NCBI GenBank assembly: GCA_964417925.1
Contig: CAYQJV010000001.1
Location: 22,192-86,191 of the forward strand
DNA: 64,000 nt
Direction: 5' to 3'
DNA from: an uncultured bacterium
GTDB taxonomy: Bacteria; Hydrothermota; Tepidihabitantia; B3-TA06; CAYQJV01
Every line of letters begins with the position of its first letter. Within the stretch, counting starts at the first letter, position 1. The position numbers and the translations under genes are program-made. The notes under the pieces were generated by a model. It searched no databases and was not told the origin of the DNA. It saw only the letters and a list, made by a program, of their open reading frames with translations. Positions 9,576 to 63,735 of the stretch are shown here, one piece after another.

Positions 9576-10481
9576 ATGAAAAAAATTGTAAAAACTATCA
9601 TACTGTTCATCTCTTTATTATTCATTTTTGACTGTAAAAAAGAACTAAAACTTCCTGAAAATATTAAAGGGGAATTGGCATTTGTAAGTGATGAAGACGG
9701 CAATAGAGACATATATATAATGAAACTCCCAGAAAGAACTATAAAACAAATAACTTTTACACAAAATACACCTACAAACTCTCAAGTTGAAAACATGTTT
9801 ATCAGTTGGTCTGTTGACAACAAAATAGCCTTTACATCAACCAGGGATGGAAACAATGAAATCTATATCATAAATGCAGATGGCACTGGAGAAAAAAGAC
9901 TAACCAACAACAACTACTTTGACGGATATCCAACTTTTTCTCCGGATGGGAAAAAAATAGCCTTCTCTTCCGCTCCTGAAGGTAAAAAAGATATTTTCAT
10001 TCTTGATTTAACCACAGGCAAAGTAAAAAGACTTACAAAAACCTTAGGAGATGAAATTACTTTAAAATGGTCACCGGATGGTAAGAAAATAGCTTATGCT
10101 GCTTACGTAAAAGGTAAGGCTCAGATATTTGTATACGACTTTAAAACCAAAAAAATAACACAACTCACCCATAATGATGCAGACAATGTAAATCCCGCAT
10201 GGACTCCAGATTCAAAGAAGATTCTTTTTTCTTCAAATAGAACAGGAGACTTTGACATATATATTATGAATGCTGATGGTTCGGATCAAAAACCTCTAAT
10301 AACATCTCCTGAAAATGATGGAATGCCATCGGTATCCAGCGATGGGAAATGGATAGCTTTTCAGTCTTATAGGGACGGAAACTTTGAAATATATATTGCC
10401 TCTATGGACGGAAAGAAAATATATAGAGTGACAAATTCTAAATTTTATGAGAGAAATCCTGTATGGAAACCATTAAAATAG
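9576..10481 (+). CDS. TolB-like periplasmic beta-propeller protein (PD40 repeats)
   Basis: Signal peptide. Repeated SPDGKKIAF…G..DIY blades typical of WD40-like PD40 repeats. SD GGAGGAG 8 nt before the ATG. Confidence 0.65.
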   Translation: MKKIVKTIILFISLLFIFDCKKELKLPENIKGELAFVSDEDGNRDIYIMKLPERTIKQITFTQNTPTNSQVENMFISWSVDNKIAFTSTRDGNNEIYIINADGTGEKRLTNNNYFDGYPTFSPDGKKIAFSSAPEGKKDIFILDLTTGKVKRLTKTLGDEITLKWSPDGKKIAYAAYVKGKAQIFVYDFKTKKITQLTHNDADNVNPAWTPDSKKILFSSNRTGDFDIYIMNADGSDQKPLITSPENDGMPSVSSDGKWIAFQSYRDGNFEIYIASMDGKKIYRVTNSKFYERNPVWKPLK

Positions 10482-51339: not shown

Positions 51340-51413
51340 AAAATATATTAGTCAAATATCCATTAACACCACTCCATGCCTTAACCATTCCACTCTCTCA
51401 AACCCTCAAAAAG

Positions 51414-51431
51414 TGTAACATTTATGTTACA
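51414..51431. promoter_or_regulatory. UAS-1: perfect 18-bp palindrome TGTAACATTTATGTTACA (predicted enhancer-binding-protein site)
   Basis: Inverted repeat TGTAACA-N4-TGTTACA with C-rich 5' flank ccctcaaaaag. Confidence 0.6.
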
Positions 51432-51486
51432 TTTAAATACAGTCTAAGCCTCATAATTACAGATACATACAAAAACCCTTCAAAAG

Positions 51487-51504
51487 TGTAACATTTGTGT
51501 TACA
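51487..51504. promoter_or_regulatory. UAS-2: palindrome TGTAACATTTGTGTTACA (one central substitution)
   Basis: Same half-sites. Centre is 73 bp from UAS-1. Confidence 0.6.
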
Positions 51505-51558
51505 TTCAAAGGCAATTTAAGTAATGTAGTTACAAAGCATACAAATACATTTAAAAAC

Positions 51559-51576
51559 TGTAACATTTATGTTACA
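51559..51576. promoter_or_regulatory. UAS-3: palindrome TGTAACATTTATGTTACA
   Basis: Centre is 72 bp from UAS-2 and about 80 bp upstream of the -24 element. Confidence 0.6.
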
Positions 51577-51646
51577 TTTTTGTTATATTCTGAAAAGCTT
51601 TCAATTTTTAAGTATAGGTATTTCATAACTTAATTTTTAGAATCTT

Positions 51647-51662
51647 TGGCATGTTTTTCGCT
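51647..51662 (+). promoter_or_regulatory. Predicted sigma-54 promoter (TGGCAT-N5-TCGC; -24 GG / -12 GC)
   Basis: GG and GC are at consensus spacing. The 29-bp block aatctttggcatgtttttcgctatataat is identical to the block at 63289-63317. Confidence 0.6.
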
Positions 51663-51711
51663 ATATAATATTGGGTGTAGAGAAAGGGGGTGAGATGATA
51701 AGAAAAAAACC

Positions 51712-51739
51712 TTGACAAAAGAATAAAAAAATATAAAAT
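51712..51739 (+). promoter_or_regulatory. Sigma-70-like promoter (TTGACA-N16-TAAAAT) inside the sigma-54 5'UTR, upstream of A1
   Basis: TTGACA at 51712-17, TATAAAAT at 51732-39. SD AGGAAG. The same element recurs at 54809-36 before A2. Confidence 0.45.
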
Positions 51740-51752
51740 TAGGAAGTGTAAA

Positions 51753-52163
51753 ATGAGAGGAGTAATAAAAATATTGGTTTTAGGTATGGTGGTGATGGTT
51801 ATAGCCCAGCCTTCCTATGATGAGAGGTGGGAAGGAGAGGCAGAAGGCACAGTAGTGGTGGATGGAGATACAATTGAGCCATGGGCTCACTGGACTGCCT
51901 GGGTTGAATATGATTATGTGCCTGGTAAGGATACTATTTGGGGAGTATGGCAGGATACGGAGACAGATGCATATGGAAATATATATGGTCATAGAAATGA
52001 GTCTGATGGTTCCGTTTCTGGAACATGGGATTGTGCTAATTATAATGTCTCTGGAGGATGGTCCGGAACCGCCACTGGTGGCGTAGGTAGTAAAGGCTCA
52101 GGAAAGTGGTGGATAAATGGGGAAGATAGTACAGGATGGTGGGAAGGTGAAAGAAAGGAGTAA
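51753..52163 (+). CDS. Small secreted Trp/Asp/Gly-rich protein A1 (136 aa, unknown family)
   Basis: Signal peptide MRGVIKILVLGMVVMVIAQP. Mature part is rich in W, D, G, E (WEGEAEG, GTWDC, WWINGEDSTGWWEGE). First 64 residues are identical to A2. Confidence 0.7.
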   Translation: MRGVIKILVLGMVVMVIAQPSYDERWEGEAEGTVVVDGDTIEPWAHWTAWVEYDYVPGKDTIWGVWQDTETDAYGNIYGHRNESDGSVSGTWDCANYNVSGGWSGTATGGVGSKGSGKWWINGEDSTGWWEGERKE

Positions 52164-52168
52164 AAATA

Positions 52169-52206
52169 AAGAGGGGGAGAGTTAAAAGGCTCTCTCCCTC
52201 TTTTTA
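52169..52206 (+). terminator. Intrinsic terminator/attenuator between A1 and B1
   Basis: AAGAGGGGGAGAG-ttaaaagg-CTCTCTCCCTCTT (12-13 bp stem, one G·U) followed by TTTTT. Confidence 0.6.
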
Positions 52207-52242
52207 AGGAGGGAATATGATGATGTTTTTACTTTTTTTTCA

Positions 52243-54795
52243 ATGATTATAAAAGATGATTTCCTTATATCTAAGGATAATCCAGTGCCATCTTCAAAAT
52301 CAAAGGTCTATGGGAAAGGTAGCAAAAAGGGAATCACAATTGTATGGCAAGATGAAAGGCTTGGAGGTGCATTTATAAAAGGAGATTATGCAGAAATTTT
52401 TTTCCAGAGTTTTGATTCCTTGAGGATGAAAATAGGAGGTAATAGAAGACTCGACATTACCCCTGAATGGAGGGTAAGAGTAGTGGGTGGTATAGGATAC
52501 TTTGATAAGGATGTTTCATTTCTCTGGAATACGGGAGATGGATTGTATTTTTGTAAGTATTCTAATAAAGGGGAACTTAAAATAAAAAGAAAAAGGATAA
52601 TCAGTGATGAAGAGTTTTATGGAAACTTGCGTCCTGATAAACCTGTTGGTTATTCAACTAATGAGATAAATAAAGGATTGGTATGCTTTACTGTGAGTTG
52701 TAAAAATGAAGGAGATAGAGTTTATGCTCTCTGTATCAATTCATGTGGTGAAGTTGTTCTTCCCATATTTACTGTAGATAGTATGCTTCCCGGAACCCCT
52801 TATTTCTGGAATGCAAAAGGTGCTATTTCAGATAGGGCATTTGGAGTTATTTATTGGGAAGGTGGGGTTGAGTATCGGATTAAGATATATACTCTTGATG
52901 GAAAATTTATTGATAAAATAATTTTGGGAAAGGGAGAGGGAACTCCCTATATTGAGATGGTAATGGATACCATTTATGTTGTGTGGTGTGAGTATCCTGA
53001 GATGAGCGTGTGGCTTGAGAAGTATGTTTTGAGAGAAGGTGGGGTTTCAAGGGAGTTTAAGGAGATGTTAAGCAAGGATGCATTGTGGTCTTCAAACATG
53101 CAGGTTGCTTTTGAATGGTGGGATAGGGATGAAGGACCTGTGGAAATTCCTTCTCTGGTTGTGATGACCGCATGGCATGACTGGGATGAAAAGAAGATAA
53201 AGTGCAGGGTATATTCAGGAGCAACTGGTGGTGAAATTGCAGGTGGTTCTTTTTCTCCCTCCGTTTCTGATACTGCAACTCCTGACTTTTCCCTTTTCTA
53301 TGGTGCAGGTAGGTTTCACATAGCATATGTTGACGACAGTAACCGGGTGATTGATGTTGCAACATATCTTACTCCTGATACCGAGCTTGTGTTTGCAGGT
53401 CCTCAGGTTGTAAGTGATGACAGCTGTGGTGAAGGATGGAGTGATGCAAGGCTTGCGGTTAACAGTAATGGAGATTTTGCAATTCTTTACTGGTCACCGG
53501 AAGGAAAGGCATTTGTAAAGTTTTTTGACAGAGATGGAAATCAGATATCCAAAGAGATAGATATTTCTACTCTCTTCACAACAAGATGTCCTTCAATGAT
53601 AGCTCCAATGATAGCAATGGATAATGAAAGAAATTTAATGGTAATAGCTTTGGAGGATTGGCTGGAGACTCTTCCGCCTATAAGGATAGAGTTTTATGGA
53701 TTGATTGTTAAGCCTTCAGGAGAAATAAAGAGGTTCAATATAGGGAGGTATCCTGAGGAGCTATACATAGGCGATAGTTATCTCACCTGTAATTCAAAAG
53801 GGGATTTCCTTTTCCTGTGGGATGAATTTCCATTTGGTTCTGAGGAAGAGAGAAATGTTATAAAGGGCAGGTTTTTTGATGCAAATGGAAGGCCAAAGAC
53901 AGATGTTTTTACTCTCAAGTTTCCTCTTGGCCCTATACACCCCACTGGAGCTGATGTTTTTGAGAATGGAGGGGCGGTTGTGGCGGCTGCAATGTCAAAT
54001 GCTGCACGCTCATGGGCAGTTGTGATAGACAGCACCGGTAATCCTTTGACAGAGTTAATAGAGTTTATACGCACCTATCCCGTTATTGCCTGTGATGGGA
54101 GGAATAGATGGGTGATGGCGGGATTAAATGTAAAGCCAAACTACATGGTTTTTGATAGAAAGGGCAATGTGATAAAGGATTTGCAGGTGATAGATGCATA
54201 TACATTTCCTTGGCCTTCTTTCTTTGGTCCTCGCCAGTTGTGGTGTGATATGGATACATCAGGGAGGTTTATAATCTACTGGACAGATTTTACTGAGGAT
54301 GCAAATCCTGATGTAAGGGCACAGATATTTTCAAGGGATGGTGACCCGGTATCAGAGATATTTGAGGTTCATAATCCTGATGCATTTCCTTATGAGTATC
54401 AGCTTTCTACCTGGCAGGGACTTGGAGTGACATCGGATAGGATTTATTTTATGTGGCTTGACAATCGCAGGATAAAGGGTTGGGACATATATGCAAAGGT
54501 AACGGACTGGGAGTATCCAACAGGAATTAAAGAAAAGAGAGAAAGTAAAAACTTAGATATAGAGTATTTGGGACCCCATATTTTAATAAGGTTTTCCCTT
54601 TCTTTTCCTCAGAATTTATCTATCAAACTCTACGATGTTTCAGGAAGAGTGGTAAAAAGCATCTTTTTAAAGGCAAAGAAAGGAGAAAATACAATTGAGA
54701 TAGAAAAAAATTTCCCTCCTGGAGTGTATTTTTTGAGAATAGAAGGGAAGGAAAAAGAATATAGCACTAAGATTCTCATTGTAAAAGGGAAATGA
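52243..54795 (+). CDS. Large beta-propeller-repeat protein B1 with T9SS C-terminal sorting domain. The 5' end is frame-disrupted relative to its SD-positioned ATG at 52217
   Basis: C-terminus LSIKLYDVSGRVVKSIFL…PGVYFLRIEG…KILIVKGK matches the Por_Secre_tail pattern. Internal repeats GDF-hhh-W…(I/V)xGRFFDxNGxP. SD AAGGAGGG at 52207-14 serves the ATG at 52217, whose frame stops at 52244 unless the T8 run (52233-40) gains one T. Confidence 0.7.
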   Translation: MIIKDDFLISKDNPVPSSKSKVYGKGSKKGITIVWQDERLGGAFIKGDYAEIFFQSFDSLRMKIGGNRRLDITPEWRVRVVGGIGYFDKDVSFLWNTGDGLYFCKYSNKGELKIKRKRIISDEEFYGNLRPDKPVGYSTNEINKGLVCFTVSCKNEGDRVYALCINSCGEVVLPIFTVDSMLPGTPYFWNAKGAISDRAFGVIYWEGGVEYRIKIYTLDGKFIDKIILGKGEGTPYIEMVMDTIYVVWCEYPEMSVWLEKYVLREGGVSREFKEMLSKDALWSSNMQVAFEWWDRDEGPVEIPSLVVMTAWHDWDEKKIKCRVYSGATGGEIAGGSFSPSVSDTATPDFSLFYGAGRFHIAYVDDSNRVIDVATYLTPDTELVFAGPQVVSDDSCGEGWSDARLAVNSNGDFAILYWSPEGKAFVKFFDRDGNQISKEIDISTLFTTRCPSMIAPMIAMDNERNLMVIALEDWLETLPPIRIEFYGLIVKPSGEIKRFNIGRYPEELYIGDSYLTCNSKGDFLFLWDEFPFGSEEERNVIKGRFFDANGRPKTDVFTLKFPLGPIHPTGADVFENGGAVVAAAMSNAARSWAVVIDSTGNPLTELIEFIRTYPVIACDGRNRWVMAGLNVKPNYMVFDRKGNVIKDLQVIDAYTFPWPSFFGPRQLWCDMDTSGRFIIYWTDFTEDANPDVRAQIFSRDGDPVSEIFEVHNPDAFPYEYQLSTWQGLGVTSDRIYFMWLDNRRIKGWDIYAKVTDWEYPTGIKEKRESKNLDIEYLGPHILIRFSLSFPQNLSIKLYDVSGRVVKSIFLKAKKGENTIEIEKNFPPGVYFLRIEGKEKEYSTKILIVKGK

Positions 54796-54808: not shown

Positions 54809-54836
54809 TTGACAAAAAATAAAAAAAATATAAAAT
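54809..54836 (+). promoter_or_regulatory. Sigma-70-like promoter (TTGACA-N16-TAAAAT) for A2-B2. No UAS or sigma-54 element in this copy
   Basis: TTGACA at 54809-14, TATAAAAT at 54829-36. Duplicate of the 51712-39 element. Confidence 0.45.
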
Positions 54837-54840
54837 AGGG

Positions 54841-55254
54841 GTGGTGAGAAGAGTAATAAAAATATTGGTTTTAGGTATGGTGGTAATGGTTATAGCCCAG
54901 CCTTCCTATGATGAGAGGTGGGAAGGAGAGGCAGAAGGCACAGTAGTGGTGGATGGAGATACAATTGAGCCATGGGCTCACTGGACTGCCTGGGTTGAAT
55001 ATGATTATGTGCCTGGTAAGGATACTATCTGGGGTATATGGTGGGATGATGAGGGAGATACAGGGAGGATATATGGACACCGAGATGAAGCAAACGACTC
55101 TGTTTTTGGAACATGGGATTGTATCAACTGTGATGTATCTGGGGAATGGGAGGGAAAGGCAAATTATCCTACGACAGATAATGCACAAGGAGAGTGGTGG
55201 GTAACAAGTGGTGGAACTGGGGATGGCACATGGAGTGGGCATAGAGAAGAATAA
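54841..55254 (+). CDS. Small secreted Trp-rich protein A2 (paralog of A1; GTG start, or GTG at 54844)
   Basis: Identical signal peptide and N-terminal half to A1. C-terminal half diverged (IWWDDEGDTGRIYGHRDE…GEWWVTSGGTGDGTWSGH). Confidence 0.7.
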   Translation: MVRRVIKILVLGMVVMVIAQPSYDERWEGEAEGTVVVDGDTIEPWAHWTAWVEYDYVPGKDTIWGIWWDDEGDTGRIYGHRDEANDSVFGTWDCINCDVSGEWEGKANYPTTDNAQGEWWVTSGGTGDGTWSGHREE

Positions 55255-55260
55255 AAACAT

Positions 55261-55282
55261 GGGAGCCGGAAATCCGGCTCCC
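55261..55282 (+). other. GC-rich hairpin without U-tract between A2 and B2 (stability/processing element rather than terminator)
   Basis: GGGAGCCGG-aaat-CCGGCTCCC followed by ATAAAAAGGAGG (SD of B2). Confidence 0.45.
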
Positions 55283-55300
55283 ATAAAAAGGAGGTAAAAA

Positions 55301-57898
55301 ATGATATTTTTATTGTTTTTAATAGTTATAAAAGATGATTTCCTGGTATCTAAGGATAATCCATGCCATTCTTTTAAGTGTCAGGTTTTTGGAAAAGGAG
55401 AGGTGGATGGTTATACCATTGTATGGAGAGATGGGAGAACCGGAACAATTAATTTACCGAGTTTTTATGAGGAAATTTTCTTTCAGTGTTTTGATTCAAA
55501 TAGAGTTAAAATTGGGGATAACACAAGACTTGGGACATCTTCTGAGTGGAAGACAAGATATCTCGGGGGCATAGGATACTTCAAAGATGCAGTATCATTT
55601 ATATGGAATGAAGGATCCGGGATGGGGCAGGCAGATATTCAGGATACCATGGGAACCATTTACTTCTGTAAGTATGATAACAATAGGAATATGGTGATAA
55701 AACCTAAAAAACTCATTGATCATAATGATATTCGTATTTATCCATTTTATCCAGTACATTATTCTACCAATGGATGTAACAGAGGACTGGTATGTTTTGG
55801 GGAGATTGGAGAAAAGAAAACAAACTTTTATGCCTTGGTTATTGATTCTTGTGGAGAAATTCTTCTTCCTTTATTTGTTGTGGATACGGTTTCTGGGTCC
55901 CATCCAATTGTGAGGGGAGCAATATCAGACAGGTATTTTGCAATATTTTATTCCACCACTTTCAATCCTGCTATTTCCAGGATGAAGGTCTATTCAATTG
56001 ATGGAAAGGAAATTGATAGGATAGTTTTTGGAGAAAGCTTCAAGGCTTCTGCTATTAAAGTATTTCTTGACACAATTTATGTTGTTTGGAGTCCGTATTT
56101 TTATGATAGGGGTGAAGAGCTATGGTTGGAGAAGTATGTGGTTAAGGATGATGGTGTTGAGAGGGTATTTCAGGAGATTTTGATGAATAGATATCCAGCA
56201 AATATGCAGGTTGCTTTTGGATGGTGGGATAGGGATGAAGGACCTGTGGAGGTTCCTTCTCTGGTTGTGATGATCGCGTGGCATGACTGGGATGAGAAGA
56301 AGATAAAGTGCAGGGTGTATTCAGGAGCAACTGGTGGTGAAATTGCAGGTGGTTCTTTTTCTCCCTCTGTTTCTGATACTGCAACTCCTGATTTTTCTCT
56401 TTTCTATGGTGCAGGAAGGTTTCACATAGCATATGTTGATGACAGTAACCGGGTGATTGATGTTGCAACATATCTTACTCCTGATACCGAGCTTGTGTTT
56501 GCAGGTCCTCAGGTTGTAAGTGATGATACCTGTGGCAGGGGATGGAGTGATGCAAGGCTTGCAGTAAACAGCAATGGAGACTTTGCAATTTTTTACTGGT
56601 GCTATTATTATGACAGTCTGCGTGCCTTTGTGAAATTTTTTGATCAAAATGGAGATGAACTTTCAAAAGAGATTGAGGTTCCTCTTCGTTTCACAAGGTT
56701 TACCAATGTAACGACGGCTATGGATGATAGGAGAAATTTGATGATAATACATGCTCCTGAGGTTCTGGAAAAAAATGAGAATGGTCGTCCCACAAGGATA
56801 AGGTTTTATGGGGTTATTGTTAATCCCTCTGGAGAGGTCAAAAAGTTTACCATAGGGGAGTATCCACCTGATGAGTTTTACATGTCCTGGCATAGTTATG
56901 TTGCATGTAATTCTAAAGGGGATTTTCTTATACTCTGGTGTCATTTTCCTGGAGGGGATGGTCCTGAAAATGTTATAAGGGGCAGGTTTTTTGATGCAAA
57001 TGGAAGACCGAAAACAGATGTTTTTACTCTCAAGTTTCCCATAGGTCCCATAATGCCCACTGGGGCTGTTGTTTTTGAGGATGGAGGGGCGGTTGTAGGA
57101 GCTGCACTGTCAAATGCTGCACGCTCATGGGCGGTTGTGATAGACAGCATCGGTAATCCTTTAACAGAATTAATAGAGTTTATACGCACTTATCCTGTTA
57201 TTGCCTGTGATGGGAGGGATAGATGGGTGATGGCAGGATTAGATGTAAAGCCAAACTGCATGGTTTTTGATAGAAAAGGAAATGTGATAAGGGATTTGCA
57301 GGTGATAGATGCATATACATTTGCCTGGCCATCCCCAATTTTCCCTCAGCAGTTATGGTGTGATATGGATACATCAGGGAGGTTTATAATTTACTGGACA
57401 GATTTTACCGAGGATGCAAATCCGGATGTCAGGGCACAGATATTTTCAAGGGATGGTGACCCGGTATCAGAGATATTTGAGGTTCATAATCCTGATGCAT
57501 TTCCTTATGAGTATCAGCTTTCTACCTGGCAGGGACTTGGAGTGACATCGGATAGGATTTATTTTATGTGGCTTGACAATCGCAGGATAAAGGGCTGGGA
57601 CATATATGCAAAGGTAACGGACTGGGAGTATCCAACAGGAATTAAAGAAAAGAGAGAAAGTAAAAACTTAGATATAGAGTATTTGGGACCCCATATTTTA
57701 ATAAGGTTTTCCCTTTCTTTTCCTCAGAATTTATCTATCAAACTCTACGATGTTTCAGGAAGAGTGGTAAAAAGCATCTTTTTAAAGGCAAGGGAAGGAG
57801 AAAACAGGGTTGAAATAAAAAAGGATTTTCCCCAGGGAGTGTATTTTTTGAGGATAGAAAAAGGGAAAGTTTTACACAAAAAAATAATAATATTGTAA
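55301..57898 (+). CDS. Large beta-propeller-repeat protein B2 with T9SS C-terminal sorting domain (paralog of B1)
   Basis: SD AAGGAGGT 6 nt before the ATG. Short hydrophobic N-terminus MIFLLFLIVI. C-terminal 310 aa are almost identical to B1, including the CTD. Confidence 0.75.
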   Translation: MIFLLFLIVIKDDFLVSKDNPCHSFKCQVFGKGEVDGYTIVWRDGRTGTINLPSFYEEIFFQCFDSNRVKIGDNTRLGTSSEWKTRYLGGIGYFKDAVSFIWNEGSGMGQADIQDTMGTIYFCKYDNNRNMVIKPKKLIDHNDIRIYPFYPVHYSTNGCNRGLVCFGEIGEKKTNFYALVIDSCGEILLPLFVVDTVSGSHPIVRGAISDRYFAIFYSTTFNPAISRMKVYSIDGKEIDRIVFGESFKASAIKVFLDTIYVVWSPYFYDRGEELWLEKYVVKDDGVERVFQEILMNRYPANMQVAFGWWDRDEGPVEVPSLVVMIAWHDWDEKKIKCRVYSGATGGEIAGGSFSPSVSDTATPDFSLFYGAGRFHIAYVDDSNRVIDVATYLTPDTELVFAGPQVVSDDTCGRGWSDARLAVNSNGDFAIFYWCYYYDSLRAFVKFFDQNGDELSKEIEVPLRFTRFTNVTTAMDDRRNLMIIHAPEVLEKNENGRPTRIRFYGVIVNPSGEVKKFTIGEYPPDEFYMSWHSYVACNSKGDFLILWCHFPGGDGPENVIRGRFFDANGRPKTDVFTLKFPIGPIMPTGAVVFEDGGAVVGAALSNAARSWAVVIDSIGNPLTELIEFIRTYPVIACDGRDRWVMAGLDVKPNCMVFDRKGNVIRDLQVIDAYTFAWPSPIFPQQLWCDMDTSGRFIIYWTDFTEDANPDVRAQIFSRDGDPVSEIFEVHNPDAFPYEYQLSTWQGLGVTSDRIYFMWLDNRRIKGWDIYAKVTDWEYPTGIKEKRESKNLDIEYLGPHILIRFSLSFPQNLSIKLYDVSGRVVKSIFLKAREGENRVEIKKDFPQGVYFLRIEKGKVLHKKIIIL

Positions 57899-57968: not shown

Positions 57969-57996
57969 TTGCATTTTTAGAAAAAATATGTATACT
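57969..57996 (+). promoter_or_regulatory. Sigma-70-type promoter (TTGCAT-N16-TATACT) for the small-ORF + kinase-EBP operon
   Basis: TTGCAT at 57969-74, TATACT at 57991-96. SD AAGGAGG at 58003-09, ATG at 58015. Confidence 0.45.
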
Positions 57997-58014
57997 TTCA
58001 AAAAGGAGGCTGTA

Positions 58015-58332
58015 ATGGTTTCATTACCGAAAAGTACTGTATACGGGGATGGTGTTAAAATCAACTCTTTACATGCAATACAGCTTCTTGACATGGAAAT
58101 TACATCTGTTAAAAGAAAAAGACGTGTAAAAAGTTCTTTGAGCACAATGTTCTTTATCAACCTCCTCTACAAAAAAGAATGCAATAAAATTACTGTCCAG
58201 ATGGATCCTGTAATAACTCACAAGAGTTATGACTACATAAATCATTGCTATAGAAACAGCAATAATAAAAAAGATAGTTTCCAAAAATTAAAGAAAATTT
58301 ACAACGAAGTAATAAACTTAACTAACAGGTGA
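58015..58332 (+). CDS. Small hypothetical protein (105 aa) translationally coupled to the kinase-EBP gene
   Basis: Strong SD then ATG at 58015 (the ORF track's 57988 start lacks an SD). Stop TGA overlaps the downstream GTG start (GTGA at 58329-32). No recognisable motif. Confidence 0.45.
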   Translation: MVSLPKSTVYGDGVKINSLHAIQLLDMEITSVKRKRRVKSSLSTMFFINLLYKKECNKITVQMDPVITHKSYDYINHCYRNSNNKKDSFQKLKKIYNEVINLTNR

Positions 58333-61300
58333 GCAGGTATAAAATAGTAGAAAAGATAGGGGAGGGAAATTACACCGTAGTATATAGAGCATATGACATC
58401 CTTTCTCAGAAGGAAGTGGCATTAAAAACTCTAAAGAACAAAGGAATTGATCCCGTGATTCTTAAAAGAGAGTATGTATTTTTAAAAAAATGCTCCCATC
58501 CTTATATAGTAAAGGTATATGAAGCAGGGTACTTAAAAGACACTCCTTATTTTACAATGGAGTACATAAAAGGAGAGGATATAAAGCAGTATCTAAAAAA
58601 GAAACGAAACGAGCAAAATTTCTGGACAATTTTTTCCACGCTCTTTTTAAAAATAGTTGCAGGAGTATCCCACTTTCACTTTAAAGGAATAATACATGGC
58701 GATCTCAAACCAAACAATATTCTTGTAGATGAACAGGACAATGTGAAAATAATAGATTTTGGTTTTGCCTTATTAAAAGGAGAAAAACCAGAGGGAACTA
58801 CAGTAGTATACACTGCTCCTGAAATCCTTAAAGGAAACCTTGATTATAGAGCAGACATTTATGCTATAGGGATGATAATGTACGAAATTATAGAAGGTAA
58901 AGATTTATTTACTCAACTCACCCCTGTAAATATTGTAAAAGAAAAGTTAAAATTTATTCCTTCTTTTTCAAAACCTATACCTTCTGAACTTAAAAATCTT
59001 GTGAAAAATATGCTTTCTCCAGAACCTTTCTTCAGACCGGATGCAAAAGAAATATACAGCACACTTTCAAAACTATCTGCAGAAAAAATAGAGATACAAT
59101 CCCAAGAGGAAATGACCACAATGCCAGTGGTAGGAAGAGAAGAACTAATAGATACTGCTTTAAAAGAGGGTAACAAAATAATATTCTATGGAGACCATGG
59201 TTATGGAAAATCAACTTTATTAAAAGAAATATCTTTTAGGGCTTGGCTTAAGAAAAAAAGGGTATTTGAAATCAATAAAGATAAAGAATACCTGCTTCTT
59301 GAATATTTAAAAACTCACTATAAAGTTAAAGCAACATCCAGGGAACATCTGTTTGCAGATATTGTATCCTCCCTTGAGAAAGAGTACGACATCTTCATAT
59401 TTGATGACCTACATCTATACTCTGAAGATGATATTGAGTTTGCAAGGTATCTTTATCTTTCCACAAAGAAGAATGTAATATTCTCAGCATTACCTTTAGA
59501 GTCCTTAAAAAAGAAGTTTGAAGAACCAGGCAGAATAGCGATAAAAAATATTCCTTCATTATCACCTAAAGAAATAAAAACTCTTGTATATATTCTTTTC
59601 CCAACCCTATCTCAGAAAGAGGAACTTACAGAAGAGCTCTATAGAATAACAAAAGGAATACCTCTGCTTTTAAAAAGCATTATTGAGATATTTTTAAAAG
59701 AAAAAATCCTTAAAAAAGAAGAGGATAAATTTATTTTTAATAGAGAGAAAATCAAAGGGTTAGAACTACCGAAAACTGTAAAAGAATTTGTAAAGAATTC
59801 ATTCAAAGAATTAAATGAAGATGAAAAAAACTTCTTACTTGCTGTCCACCTATTAAAAGACTTTGCATCCTTATCCAACATCTATCAAATGGTACAACTA
59901 AAAGAGGATAAGATATATTCCATAGCAGAAAGTTTAAAAATAAAAGAACTTATAAAAATAATCCAAAAAAACAACACAATTATCTACACACTTTCAACTG
60001 GAATTTATATCCCCTTTATAAAAAAACTAAAAAGTTATAAAGACCTTTTGGAAAAAAGTATAAAAATAATTGAAAAGGAAAACAGCACCAAAAAAATATA
60101 TCTTCTTGCAGAATACAACCATATTCTCGGTAAAAAAGAAAAGGCAGTTGATTATCTCTACACTGCAGTAAATACGGCAAGAAAAACCTCCCTCCTTTGT
60201 GAAGCAAAGAAATTTATAGAAATACTCATCCAGAACTATCCTATAGAAGACATACCAAACCCTTGCAAATTTTGTATTGTAGCCGGAGACATCTATCTAC
60301 TGCTTCATGAATTAAAAAAGGCTCAGACATTTTTCTCAATATCATTTTCCTTCTGCCCTCAAGAAAGAAAAAGTGATATTCATCACAGGATTGCTCAAAC
60401 AATGTTTTATCAGGGAAATATCAAAGATGCAAAACTGGAAACAATAAAGGGATTAAAATATGCAAAAGATAAACATGAATTATTGAATTTTCTATCATGG
60501 CTTTACATCTTTGATGGTGAAAAGCAAAGAGCAGAAAGAATCTTAAACCATGTAATAGCACATACAAATAACAAAGAGATACTTTCAAATGCATACTATA
60601 ACCTTGCAATACTTTACAAAAAATATAACCAATTTATTAAATGTGCTACGGTGCTTGGGAAAAGCATAAAATATCTAAAGGAAAAAGACATCTATGGTTA
60701 TGCGTTAAGACTTGAAATTGCTTGTGAAATGCTACTTCAGAAGGGATTTTTTAGAAATGCAGAAAGAATACTTTTAAAAATAAAAAATATTTGGGGAAAA
60801 ATTAAAAACTTAAATAAATATACATCAACTTTAATAAACATGGGAAGAATAAAAAGATTTGAAAATCCCAAAAAAGCACTTGAATACTTCCATCAAGCAG
60901 AAATCATGAGTCTCAAAATAAAAGATTATGAACTTTTTGCAAGTGCCCTTCTTAACTCTGCATTCTTATTTGAAACATACGGAAGAACTGAACAGGCTCT
61001 TGAAAGCATAGGTAAACTTCTTACATACGAACAAAAAATTTCAGAAGAGAGATTTTGTAAAGGAGTTTTTTATTATACAAAGTATCTACTTTTAACGAAT
61101 CAGATAGAAAAAGCAGAAGAATTTCTTAAAACCATCAAAAGGAAAGACTCTTCTTGGTGCCTTTTATCACAGACATTGGTTCTTTTTGAAAAAAATGATG
61201 ATAAAAGATTCAGAAAGGAGATGGTAGAAATACTATTAAGGGAAAATACCGAAGAAGAAGTCTCTGAAGCTCTTAATATTCTTTTTGAATATCATTACAA

Positions 61301-63149
61301 TAAAAATGATTTGGAAAGATGTAAAACCATCCTTGAAAGGATTAAAAAGATATCATATGCGAAAAAAAATCCTTTTAAAGAAGTTGAGATAATGTTAAAA
61401 ACAGCAATCCTTTTAAAAGATAAAAAACTACTTGAAGAAACAATAAAAAGAGCAGAAAGAATTCACTATTTCAATGCAAAACCCCTTGCCCTATCTATAC
61501 TTGGAAAGATATATTATGAGAAAGGAGATTACTTGAAGGCATATAAACATCTAAAAGAAGCAAGGGAAAATTTTGAGAGAATAGGAATGATAAATACCGC
61601 AGAAAAGATAAAAAAATATGAAGAAAAAGCAAAGGAAAAAAGTATAGAAATCCAAGTACCGGAAAGGAAATACTTAGATACACTTGAAAGAATAAGCGCT
61701 GTGGTAAAGGACTATTTTGGAAAAGATGAGTTTTTCCTTGAACTTTTAAACATTCTGATAGAAGCAACCTCTGCAGAAAGAGGAATGGTCATGATAGGGG
61801 AGAACCAAGAAAATCTATACTGCGTGGGAACTACAAATATAGATGAAGTTACTTATGTCGATGCAACCGCATTTTCAAAGACTGTATTAAAACATGTAAG
61901 AGAAGGTAAAAGAGGGATATATACAGAAGATGCAACAAAAGATCCCAGGTTTAAAGATGCAGAAAGTGTCAAACTAAAAGAGATAAAGTCAATTCTATGC
62001 GTTCCATTAATGGCAAAAGATGAAGTTATAGGAGTTCTCTATCTTGATAGTTCACTCAAAAAAGGACTCTTTACAGAAGAAACTCTAAAATTCATGGAGT
62101 CTGTATCAAATATAATAGGCACATTTGTGTATACCTCTTATACCGCAGAGAAAAAGTTTAAAGAACTTGAAAGGATAAAACTAAAAACTCAAGAAATAGT
62201 AATAGGAAGATCAAGAAAAATAAAAAGGATATTCAAGGAAATCCAACAAATTGCTCAAACAGATTCAAACATCCTCCTTATAGGAGAAACAGGAACAGGT
62301 AAAGGGGTAATTGCACGGTTAATTCATGAAAAGAGCAGGCGGAGCGAATATCTCTTTCAGTATATAAACTGTGGAGCAATTCCCTATGAACTATTTGAAG
62401 CAGAACTATTTGGATACAAAAAAGGAGCCTTCACAGGTGCAAGAGAAACAAGAAAGGGCTTACTTGAAGAGGCTCATAAAGGAACCGTTTTTTTGGATGA
62501 AATAGCAAATATTCCAATATCTGTCCAGGCAAAGTTGCTGGATGTAATAGAGCGAAAAAAAATAAGAAGGCTTGGAGAAAATATAGAAAGGGATATTGAT
62601 GTAAGGTTTATATTTGCAACAAACAGAGATTTAGAACAAGAAATAGAAAAGGAAAAGTTCAGAAATGACCTGTATTACCGAATTTCAACAACTGTTATTG
62701 AAATTCCACCACTAAGAGAAAGAAAAGAAGATATTCCTATATTTGTAGATTTCTTCATAGATAAATTTTCAAAAGAACTTAACAAAAATATAAAGGGAGT
62801 TTCACAAGAAGCCATGGAAATACTATTAAAATACCACTGGCCAGGAAATATAAGAGAGCTTTCCAATGTAATTGAACGGGCTGTAATTATGGCAGATAAA
62901 GAAACCATAGGCAAAAATCACATAGATAGAGGAATAATTGAATCAGTAATACCACCAGCCCCTCTAAAAATTGAAACAGAAAAAGTAAAGAAAGAGATGA
63001 TAATAAAGGCACTTCAACTCCACAAAGGTAACATCAAAAAAACAGCCCAATACCTGCACATAACCCGTCAACACCTCTCCAGGCTTTTAAAAAGATACAA
63101 CATTGACCCAGCCCAGTATAAACACCCCCAAAACCCCCAAAAAGTGTAA
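58329..63149 (+). CDS. Multidomain one-component regulator: Ser/Thr protein kinase + P-loop NTPase + TPR array + GAF + sigma-54 activator AAA+ + Fis-type HTH (1606 aa)
   Basis: Kinase motifs VALKTL, HGDLKPNN (58695-718), DFG, APE. P-loop GDHGYGKST (59190-216). Long TPR-like helical repeats. GAF-like block LLNILIEATSAERGMVMIG…VLYLDS. Sigma-54 AAA+ Walker A GETGTGKG (62283-306), GAFTGA (62424-41), Walker B VFLDEI, WPGNIRELSNVIERA. C-terminal HTH KTAQYLHITRQHLSRLLKRY. Confidence 0.8.
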   Translation: MSRYKIVEKIGEGNYTVVYRAYDILSQKEVALKTLKNKGIDPVILKREYVFLKKCSHPYIVKVYEAGYLKDTPYFTMEYIKGEDIKQYLKKKRNEQNFWTIFSTLFLKIVAGVSHFHFKGIIHGDLKPNNILVDEQDNVKIIDFGFALLKGEKPEGTTVVYTAPEILKGNLDYRADIYAIGMIMYEIIEGKDLFTQLTPVNIVKEKLKFIPSFSKPIPSELKNLVKNMLSPEPFFRPDAKEIYSTLSKLSAEKIEIQSQEEMTTMPVVGREELIDTALKEGNKIIFYGDHGYGKSTLLKEISFRAWLKKKRVFEINKDKEYLLLEYLKTHYKVKATSREHLFADIVSSLEKEYDIFIFDDLHLYSEDDIEFARYLYLSTKKNVIFSALPLESLKKKFEEPGRIAIKNIPSLSPKEIKTLVYILFPTLSQKEELTEELYRITKGIPLLLKSIIEIFLKEKILKKEEDKFIFNREKIKGLELPKTVKEFVKNSFKELNEDEKNFLLAVHLLKDFASLSNIYQMVQLKEDKIYSIAESLKIKELIKIIQKNNTIIYTLSTGIYIPFIKKLKSYKDLLEKSIKIIEKENSTKKIYLLAEYNHILGKKEKAVDYLYTAVNTARKTSLLCEAKKFIEILIQNYPIEDIPNPCKFCIVAGDIYLLLHELKKAQTFFSISFSFCPQERKSDIHHRIAQTMFYQGNIKDAKLETIKGLKYAKDKHELLNFLSWLYIFDGEKQRAERILNHVIAHTNNKEILSNAYYNLAILYKKYNQFIKCATVLGKSIKYLKEKDIYGYALRLEIACEMLLQKGFFRNAERILLKIKNIWGKIKNLNKYTSTLINMGRIKRFENPKKALEYFHQAEIMSLKIKDYELFASALLNSAFLFETYGRTEQALESIGKLLTYEQKISEERFCKGVFYYTKYLLLTNQIEKAEEFLKTIKRKDSSWCLLSQTLVLFEKNDDKRFRKEMVEILLRENTEEEVSEALNILFEYHYNKNDLERCKTILERIKKISYAKKNPFKEVEIMLKTAILLKDKKLLEETIKRAERIHYFNAKPLALSILGKIYYEKGDYLKAYKHLKEARENFERIGMINTAEKIKKYEEKAKEKSIEIQVPERKYLDTLERISAVVKDYFGKDEFFLELLNILIEATSAERGMVMIGENQENLYCVGTTNIDEVTYVDATAFSKTVLKHVREGKRGIYTEDATKDPRFKDAESVKLKEIKSILCVPLMAKDEVIGVLYLDSSLKKGLFTEETLKFMESVSNIIGTFVYTSYTAEKKFKELERIKLKTQEIVIGRSRKIKRIFKEIQQIAQTDSNILLIGETGTGKGVIARLIHEKSRRSEYLFQYINCGAIPYELFEAELFGYKKGAFTGARETRKGLLEEAHKGTVFLDEIANIPISVQAKLLDVIERKKIRRLGENIERDIDVRFIFATNRDLEQEIEKEKFRNDLYYRISTTVIEIPPLRERKEDIPIFVDFFIDKFSKELNKNIKGVSQEAMEILLKYHWPGNIRELSNVIERAVIMADKETIGKNHIDRGIIESVIPPAPLKIETEKVKKEMIIKALQLHKGNIKKTAQYLHITRQHLSRLLKRYNIDPAQYKHPQNPQKV

Positions 63150-63162
63150 CATTTATGTTACA
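63145..63162. promoter_or_regulatory. UAS-4: palindrome TGTAACATTTATGTTACA overlapping the regulator's stop codon
   Basis: TAA stop (63147-49) is inside the left half-site. C-rich flank cccccaaaaag. Confidence 0.6.
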
Positions 63163-63217
63163 TTTTGAGGCGGTCTAAGTTACGTAATTAAGTATATATA
63201 CAAATACCCCCAAAAAG

Positions 63218-63235
63218 TGTAACATTTATGTTACA
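63218..63235. promoter_or_regulatory. UAS-5: palindrome TGTAACATTTATGTTACA
   Basis: Centre is 73 bp from UAS-4 and about 70 bp upstream of the -24 element. Confidence 0.6.
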
Positions 63236-63294
63236 TTTTGAAAAAACCCCAATTTTTAAGTTACGGTGTTTTTTGACTTAATTTTTAAAATCTT

Positions 63295-63310
63295 TGGCAT
63301 GTTTTTCGCT
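63295..63310 (+). promoter_or_regulatory. Predicted sigma-54 promoter (TGGCAT-N5-TCGC), second copy
   Basis: 29-bp block identical to 51641-51669. SD AAGGAGGT and ATG at 63371 lie downstream. Confidence 0.6.
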
Positions 63311-63370
63311 ATATAATTATTAGTGTATGAAAAGGGAAATAAAAAACAAAAAAATAAAAAGGAGGTAAAC

Positions 63371-63532
63371 ATGAAAAAGTTGTTAGCATTGCTTGTTTTT
63401 GTTGGTGGTTTGCTTTTTGCTGATCCGCCTTCCCCTTGTGGTGGACCTGGAGATGATCCTCCTGATCCTACACCACCACCTCCTATTCCTATAGACGTAG
63501 AAAATATTGTTGAGGTGATACCGGGGGAGTAA
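63371..63532 (+). CDS. Small secreted Pro/Asp-rich peptide (53 aa precursor)
   Basis: Strong SD. Signal peptide MKKLLALLVFVGGLLFA. Mature DPPSPCGGPGDDPPDPTPPPPIPIDVENIVEVIPGE. The ORF track's 63323 start lacks an SD and sits at the predicted TSS. Confidence 0.55.
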   Translation: MKKLLALLVFVGGLLFADPPSPCGGPGDDPPDPTPPPPIPIDVENIVEVIPGE

Positions 63533-63735
63533 TGCTTAGAACTGAGGGGGCAATAAGGCTGAAGGCGAGAAAGGGATTAAAGGGATTAGAGATAAAGAAT
63601 GGGGACTATGTACGCATATTCACCACTACCCTGGATGATGAGTTTCTTGCAGAAATCCTTCGTTCTGTACCCAGATGTTATGAAGTACGGATAAAGCATG
63701 AAAGATTTGATGTTGAACTTTCCCTTACGCATTAG
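63532..63735 (+). CDS. Hypothetical 67-aa protein, start overlapping the upstream stop (TAATG)
   Basis: ORF with 1-nt start/stop overlap to the peptide gene. No recognisable motif. Confidence 0.35.
   Translation: MLRTEGAIRLKARKGLKGLEIKNGDYVRIFTTTLDDEFLAEILRSVPRCYEVRIKHERFDVELSLTH

Follow-up and report, generated by a model that had tools for sequence, protein, structure and literature searches.

The archetype of sigma-54-dependent activation from a distance is NtrC at glnAp2 of Escherichia coli, where tandem dyad enhancers lie 100-140 bp upstream of a -24/-12 promoter whose -12 element reads TCGCT. At norVW, three enhancer sites in front of the sigma-54 promoter serve the GAF-regulated activator NorR. 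TyrR is a sigma-54-type AAA+ protein whose helix-turn-helix (HTH) is C-terminal; in E. coli it works with sigma-70, has no GAFTGA function and its boxes are usually adjacent. In Pseudomonas aeruginosa, three 18-bp GcsR sites (TGTAACG-N4-CGTTCCG) occur within ~200 bp upstream of the RpoN promoter of gcs2; the gcsR gene adjoins its target operon, binding was detected by electrophoretic mobility shift assay, and dependence on RpoN was found in E. coli by means of an rpoN mutant (PMC4894688). Here we analyse a 64-kb stretch of DNA (contig CAYQJV010000001.1; hereafter the window) from an uncultured hydrothermal-sediment bacterium, in which copies of an 18-bp dyad, TGTAACA-N4-TGTTACA, precede two -24/-12 elements next to an unusually large gene for a 1606-amino-acid (aa) kinase-fused activator. 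We find that two paralogous sigma-54 enhancer-promoter modules most likely bracket a lineage-specific gene cluster.

Among the characterised systems, GcsR is the closest to this locus: the left arm of its site is identical to the TGTAACA of the window dyads at 6/7 positions. GcsR is, however, TyrR-like and responds to glycine, whereas the window protein has a kinase/STAND/TPR/GAF region and its predicted targets are secreted proteins. The TyrR boxes of Enterobacteria (TGTAAA-N6-TTTACA) have the same 18-bp TGT-N12-ACA format as the window dyad and match its arms at 10/12 positions, but the N-terminal domains of TyrR and of the 1606-aa activator differ. NorR resembles the window system in its GAF regulation and in the three enhancer sites before a sigma-54 promoter. 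Yet its site is GT-N7-AC, and NorR is a small three-domain protein without kinase or STAND, unlike the 1606-aa activator. NtrC shares with the locus the TCGCT element of its promoter; it differs in being a response regulator whose sites, TGCACC-N5-GGTGCA, are about three helical turns apart. The N-terminal chassis of the 1606-aa activator is also found in kinase-AAA_16-(TPR)-GAF proteins that have other outputs. The arrangement of promoter and enhancer is a textbook one, and its logic will not surprise specialists. Less ordinary are the architecture of the activator, the 73-bp spacing of the dyads and the orphan secreted targets.

Dyads and -24/-12 elements form two modules

Module 1 contains three dyads with the sequence TGTAACATTT[A/G]TGTTACA, which we read directly at 51414-51431, 51487-51504 and 51559-51576. 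A first-pass annotation of the window had placed them at exactly these positions, with centres 73 and 72 bp apart. The distal site (dyad A), whose centre lies ~250 bp upstream of the predicted start site, and the proximal site (dyad C) both read TGTAACATTTATGTTACA; dyad B between them reads TGTAACATTTGTGTTACA. The dyads had been described as perfect 18-bp palindromes, which is incorrect: 7-bp arms surround an asymmetric 4-nt centre, and 16/18 or 14/18 positions are symmetric. As TGTWACA is itself a palindrome, each dyad can also be read as an 11-bp direct repeat, and the centres of its two half-sites are 11 bp apart. Taken together, the array comprises 2.5 tandem copies of a 73-bp unit with 78% identity. 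A C-rich 5' flank, previously ascribed to every copy, accompanies two of the three sites of module 1 (four of the five overall) and is missing from the remaining one.

Downstream of dyad C, the forward strand carries the sigma-54-type -24/-12 promoter TGGCATGTTTTTCGCT (51647-51662), with a predicted start near 51673. Its doublets, GG at 51648-51649 and GC at 51660-51661, are exactly 10 bp apart, which confirms the consensus sigma-54 spacing reported in the first-pass annotation. Written as TGGCATG-TTTT-TCGCT, the element has one mismatch to TGGCAY-N5-TTGCW. The distance of about 80 bp between dyads and promoter, also reported earlier, needs correction: the gap between the proximal dyad and TGGCA is 70 bp, and it is from the centre of this dyad to GG that 81 bp are measured.

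A second module, which had gone unmentioned, spans 63145-63317 and begins on the stop codon of the activator gene. Its two dyads, D (63145-63162, overlapping this stop codon) and E (63218-63235), are 73 bp apart. The same 16-mer follows at 63295-63310, again on the forward strand and with a predicted start near 63321, and the sequence TGGCATGTTTTTCGCTATATAAT at 63295-63317 is identical to that of module 1.

The two modules can be aligned over ~200 bp. Their dyads are identical at 35/36 positions (17/18 between B and D, 18/18 between C and E), the -24/-12 16-mers at 16/16 and a 43-bp promoter block at 41/43; in the remaining aligned DNA the identity is 57%. According to a naive binomial estimate, the probability of such agreement is ~5e-8 for the dyads and ~1e-9 for the promoter block. 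The stretch from the proximal dyad to the promoter holds a single indel, an insertion of 11 bp in module 1 (TTGTTATATTC, 51580-51590). Since this insertion is a degenerate third 11-bp unit, the helical phase from dyad to promoter is kept.

The dyads are specific to the sigma-54-type promoters within the 64 kb. We counted five exact dyads in the window, compared to 0.31 matches expected with two mismatches permitted, and none of 100 shuffles reached the observed count. All five fall within the two modules, 76-232 bp upstream of a -24/-12 midpoint (dyad centres at 232, 159 and 87 bp in module 1, and at 149 and 76 bp in module 2). They thus combine the properties of an enhancer, namely dyad symmetry, half-sites separated by about one turn, presence in two or more copies and a location roughly 80-250 bp upstream of a promoter. 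Just two matches to TGGCA-N8-GCW occur in the window, both at 60-70 bp on the downstream side of a dyad, and intergenic -24/-12 sites close to the consensus are confined to the two modules. A loose -24/-12 pattern alone occurs in the window about as often as chance predicts (2 found versus 2.03 expected); the significance of these elements thus comes from their position and conservation and not from enrichment. Judged from the sequence, the assignment of the -24/-12 elements as sigma-54 promoters is strongly supported, and we regard it as highly probable.

Each module also contains one copy of the inverted repeat TTAAGT-N14-ACTTAA, which occurs nowhere else in the window. In module 1 (51608-51633) as in module 2 (63256-63281), the repeat lies between the proximal dyad and the -24 element. 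The half-sites are 20 bp apart, and the centre is ~34 bp upstream of GG (~-58 from the predicted start), which is where architectural proteins usually act. When compared by eye, the consensus of the integration host factor (WATCAANNNNTTR) did not fit both modules.

As a side observation, contigs L001 and L219 from independent short-read assemblies end precisely at the dyad repeats. Such breaks are consistent with the dyads being multi-copy repeats in the genome.

The -24/-12 element is conserved in relatives

We compared the promoter of module 1 to the DNA upstream of homologues of its first gene, which encodes a 136-aa protein. The relatives are seven metagenome contigs from related hydrothermal populations. 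The members of the 136-aa cluster are on short contigs, and three come explicitly from hydrothermal-vent or GBSed-labelled samples. Upstream of the homologue, L213 and L218 have TTGGCACGATTTTTGCT, and L214, L215, L216, L217 and L221 have TTGGCACCAATTTTGCT. An alignment of seven sequences, which comprise five distinct versions, shows no change in TTTGGCA and TTT.GCT, while the spacer varies and indels occur immediately downstream; L221 shows the same invariant doublets with a variable spacer. The element kept in the relatives can be written as TTGGCAC-N-TTTTGCT, again with a spacer that differs. One of the versions is a perfect consensus (TGGCACGATTTTTGCT). Invariant doublets together with a free spacer and downstream indels are what a functional -24/-12 promoter should show, and they speak against initiation from the TATAAT-like box at 51664-51669. 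This box follows just after the GC doublet, has no -35 element and is not conserved, having been lost in L216 and L217.

A further promoter-like signal is present in the leader of the 136-aa gene. The sequence TTGACA-16-TAAAAT (51712-51739, forward strand) matches the sigma-70 consensus at 11/12 positions, is repeated at 54809-54836 and is kept in all relatives. It may serve as a second promoter, which is compatible with a sigma-54 promoter upstream. The sigma-70-like box and an A-rich leader are found upstream of every copy of the 136-aa gene, including the copy that has no sigma-54 promoter.

The adjacent gene encodes a kinase-fused activator

The activator gene (58329-63149, forward strand) encodes a protein of 1606 aa with a Ser/Thr kinase domain, a P-loop STAND-like region, TPR, GAF, a sigma-54 AAA+ domain with GAFTGA, and HTH_8. 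The protein matches the Pfam families Sigma54_activat (PF00158, 2e-66), AAA lid (PF25601) and HTH_8 (PF02954, 8.9e-8). As read directly from the translation, the kinase retains VALK, HGDLKPNN, DFG and APE, and the AAA+ domain retains Walker A and B. The GAFTGA motif is intact, and its combination with a sigma-54 AAA+ domain and a C-terminal HTH_8 identifies the protein as an enhancer-binding protein. It is the only GAFTGA protein in the window, which bears out the claim of the first-pass annotation that the window encodes a single enhancer-binding protein. Furthermore, no other DNA-binding regulator was found among the genes of the cluster that were scanned against Pfam. The dyads can reasonably, if provisionally, be assigned to this adjacent activator.

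Among the best 25 of 39 Pfam matches of the activator, the N-terminal region is covered by Pkinase, AAA_16/AAA_22, TPR and GAF, and neither ACT nor PAS is found. Because the N-terminal region thus matches kinase/STAND/TPR/GAF and not ACT-PAS, the protein does not belong to the TyrR/GcsR family; its likeness to the TyrR system is confined to the format of the DNA site. Its nearest homologues show 31-38% identity over at most a third of the protein. The sensing chassis is combined with a sigma-54 output in eight clusters (P0002-P0009) and with GGDEF, cyclase, histidine-kinase or AraC outputs in others (P0019, P0022, P0024, P0027 and P0046). When the HTH was compared to solved structures, it gave weak matches to NtrX and PrrA (E = 0.06-0.17), which are uninformative on specificity. 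In the literature searched, none of these chassis proteins is characterised. We found no experimental literature on kinase-activator fusions, and nothing specific on the dyad sequence or on a link between sigma-54 and type IX secretion.

One of the eight clusters with a sigma-54 output contains a homologue encoded on a contig of Zixibacteria UBA10806 (L222, 10001-22029). Three genes for type IX cargo come after the gene of this kinase-STAND-TPR-GAF sigma-54 activator, and near them there is no recognisable -24/-12 element or dyad. The presence of an activator homologue beside type IX cargo hints at a recurrent link between the two.

A model of regulation and its alternatives

Every test that we ran favours the interpretation, already put forward in the first-pass annotation, of an enhancer that acts on a sigma-54 promoter; the evidence is computational throughout. 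Taken as a whole, the model that the dyads are an enhancer for the adjacent kinase-fused activator and that this activator works on a sigma-54 promoter appears reasonably probable to us. According to this model, activator dimers would bind the TGTAACA-N4-TGTTACA dyads through the C-terminal Fis-type HTH. With a spacing of 72-73 bp, the three dyads of module 1 and the two of module 2 would be roughly on the same face of the DNA. A signal perceived at the N-terminal kinase/STAND/TPR/GAF region would free the AAA+ domain for oligomerisation. From the proximal dyad to the -24 element the DNA is AT-rich and includes TTAAGT-N14-ACTTAA; this stretch might bend or be bent by an architectural protein. 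The resulting loop would bring the activator into contact with the sigma-54 RNA polymerase that is held in a closed state at TGGCATG-N4-TCGCT. ATP hydrolysis would then open the promoter, and transcription would start near 51673 in module 1 and near 63321 in module 2. Module 1 would drive mainly the gene of the 136-aa secreted beta-barrel protein, since there is a strong hairpin behind this gene. Read-through from module 1 could reach the genes for type IX secretion cargo and possibly the activator gene. The output of module 2 would be the genes for small secreted peptides.

A more far-reaching version of the model is tentative and, in our view, rather doubtful. The 1606-aa protein might represent an uncharacterised class of sigma-54 activators, in which a eukaryote-like Ser/Thr kinase and a STAND/TPR/GAF chassis are fused to the AAA+ motor. 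The 73-bp (seven-turn) enhancer and the TTAAGT element would scaffold its megadalton oligomer, and the output would consist of lineage-restricted secreted and type IX proteins. If the basic model is true, the locus offers a testable pairing of protein, site and promoter for a kinase-fused sigma-54 activator, and it provides the first regulatory handle on a gene family that has almost no relatives.

Several observations weigh against the proposed model. At 72-73 bp, the dyads are much further apart than the two to three turns that usually separate the sites of activator dimers. No RpoN box was found in the 64 kb. A conserved sigma-70-like promoter sits between the -24/-12 element and the ATG, and the identity between the modules could partly result from gene conversion rather than selection. 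At the position of the proximal dyad, the relatives have AAAAAG[T/C]GTAAACTGTAAACA, a sequence not found in the window, and no dyad; their contigs represent paralogous contexts. The dyad is thus without support across lineages. Moreover, TTAAGT-N14-ACTTAA is conserved more widely than the dyad and could be the real site of the activator.

This last point is central to an explanation in which the sigma-54 promoter is real and the dyads are bound by another factor. The activator would then act in solution or from the TTAAGT-N14-ACTTAA element next to -24, with the 73-bp repeats used by another regulator or having a purely architectural role. Such an explanation fits the absence of the dyad from the relatives, and it fits the conservation of the repeat, whose arms are kept while the spacer is free, both between the modules and in relatives without a dyad (L213, L214 and L221). 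It also fits a distant kinase-activator locus with 57% G+C (L223), where TTAAGT-N13-ACTTAT (9893-9916) directly precedes a divergent sigma-54-like promoter, TGGTATGACATTTGCT, and where the activator has the same unusual R-x-H-L recognition helix as the 1606-aa protein. However, L223 also carries TGT-N12-ACA further upstream, and the scanned genes of the cluster offer no second regulator that could occupy the dyads. In addition, half-sites 20 bp apart and centred at ~-58 would be atypical for HTH_8 activator dimers. The dyad, in contrast, has the 18-bp format of proven activator sites; as its half-sites are 11 bp apart, as in such sites, and as it lies at an enhancer distance, we prefer it as the target of the HTH. 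We therefore consider binding of the dyads by another factor unlikely, at perhaps one chance in a handful.

The conserved box in the leader raises the question of whether transcription starts from sigma-70-type promoters alone, either from TATAAT at 51664-51669 or from TTGACA-16-TAAAAT at 51712-51739, the -24/-12 match being functionless. The close match of the latter to the consensus, its second copy at 54809-54836 and its conservation in all relatives agree with this, as do the lack of enrichment of the loose -24/-12 pattern and the lack of an RpoN box in the window. A functionless match would, however, hardly keep GG and GC invariant over five promoter versions while the spacer changes, one of these versions being a perfect consensus. 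TATAAT lacks a -35 element and has been lost in two relatives, and a transcript started from TAAAAT would lack the ribosome-binding site. The cluster furthermore encodes an activator with intact GAFTGA, and the co-existence of both promoter types is compatible with the sigma-54 model. Initiation by sigma-70 alone is thus improbable in our judgement. We give even less weight to the idea that recent duplication or gene conversion keeps the repeats alike, and that they are tandem duplications without function or else hairpins acting as weak bidirectional terminators. The array is indeed a 73-bp tandem repeat, each dyad lies between an A-run and a T-run and can fold as a hairpin of 9-11 bp, dyad D follows a stop codon, and arrays of the generic dyad GTAACA-N4-TGTTAC are common in metagenomes. 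But the dyads are identical at 35/36 positions compared to 52-65% for the repeat bodies, and no gene ends at the array of module 1, from which pdxJ diverges. As RNA, the dyads contain two G-C pairs and reach -7 to -12 kcal/mol, compared to -25.5 kcal/mol for the local terminator, and they lack the combination of a G+C-rich stem and a U-tract at a gene end that marks intrinsic terminators. The metagenomic arrays differ in flanks and spacings and have no -24/-12 element at a comparable spacing.

Matches to the dyad in other genomes

Scanning species genomes for the 18-mer yielded at least 117 loci, with a single match each among the 80 listed. Matches to TGTAACATTTATGTTACA in several Pseudomonas species (L003, L008, L027, L033, L057 and L080) were rejected as regulator sites: they form the 3' end of the coding sequence of a conserved gene (...NDGPVTFMLQM*) and are coincidental. 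Tandem matches to GTAACA-N4-TGTTAC in metagenomes were likewise rejected as related sites, as they form 94 unrelated arrays with other flanks and periods of 17-85 bp, mostly without a -24/-12 element. Since this generic dyad is common, the metagenome scan is uninformative. Some of the arrays are long (L132, L179, L139 and L123/L131/L170/L195), with up to 35 copies and periods of 35-44 or 82 bp, and they appear to be unrelated to the window locus.

Probable target genes and genomic neighbourhood

The first gene downstream of module 1 (51753-52163, forward strand) encodes a secreted, Trp-rich protein of 136 aa that is predicted to form a small beta-barrel. Its structural model (predicted local distance difference test, pLDDT, 80.5) weakly resembles the barrels of NHBA-C, hemophilin and lipocalin (template-modelling score, TM, ~0.5). 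The gene is followed by a strong terminator-like hairpin with a T-run (52168-52205, forward strand, -25.5 kcal/mol), which resembles a terminator or attenuator placed ahead of the large gene that comes next. This large gene (52243-54795, forward strand) encodes an 850-aa protein with a C-terminal sorting domain for type IX secretion; its model is of low confidence (pLDDT 59.5) and has only generic beta-propeller-like matches (TM ~0.2). Both genes have a tandem duplicate on the forward strand (54841-57898), consisting of a 137-aa gene (54841-55254) and an 865-aa gene (55301-57898); this second pair has no -24/-12 element of its own. A strong hairpin also comes after the 137-aa gene (55258-55285), with no T-run on the forward strand. 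Between the duplicate and the activator gene lies an open reading frame (ORF) of 114 aa (57988-58332, forward strand), which overlaps the start of the activator gene by 4 nt.

Module 2 is followed on the forward strand (63371-63735) by genes for a Pro-rich secreted peptide of 53 aa (63371-63532) and a protein of 67 aa (63532-63735). Beyond the window, which contig L219 continues, there are a 99-aa gene and then, at 911-2007 of L219, hypA and a gene for a ParA/CbiA-type ATPase that is possibly hypB-like. The hypA and ATPase genes may be co-transcribed with the three small genes downstream of module 2.

The families of the putative target proteins are small. For the 850-aa family, we found three proteins among 5.8 billion searched; the traceable members P0063 and P0064 are both on one contig of 110.7 kb. 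A third paralogous gene pair (P0065/P0072) lies on a 24-kb contig, and the 136-aa family comprises three clusters. The flanking genes are housekeeping genes (pdxJ, secDF, secA, dnaE and pheS). No mobile-element or integrase gene was detected among the ORFs scanned, and Rfam had no match anywhere in the window.

Lastly, we compared the two gene pairs to each other. Between 51753-54795 and 54841-57898, internal stretches of 300 nt are 90-96% identical and other parts ~70%, a patchy pattern that suggests gene conversion between the pairs. A Shine-Dalgarno sequence and an ATG at 52218 are not in the reading frame of the 850-aa ORF. With one additional T in the T8 run at 52233-52240 they would be joined to it, and the protein would have an N-terminus like that of its paralogue (MIFLLFLIVIKDD). 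The frame break at 52218-52243 could reflect a sequencing error in the homopolymer or a switch that works by slippage.

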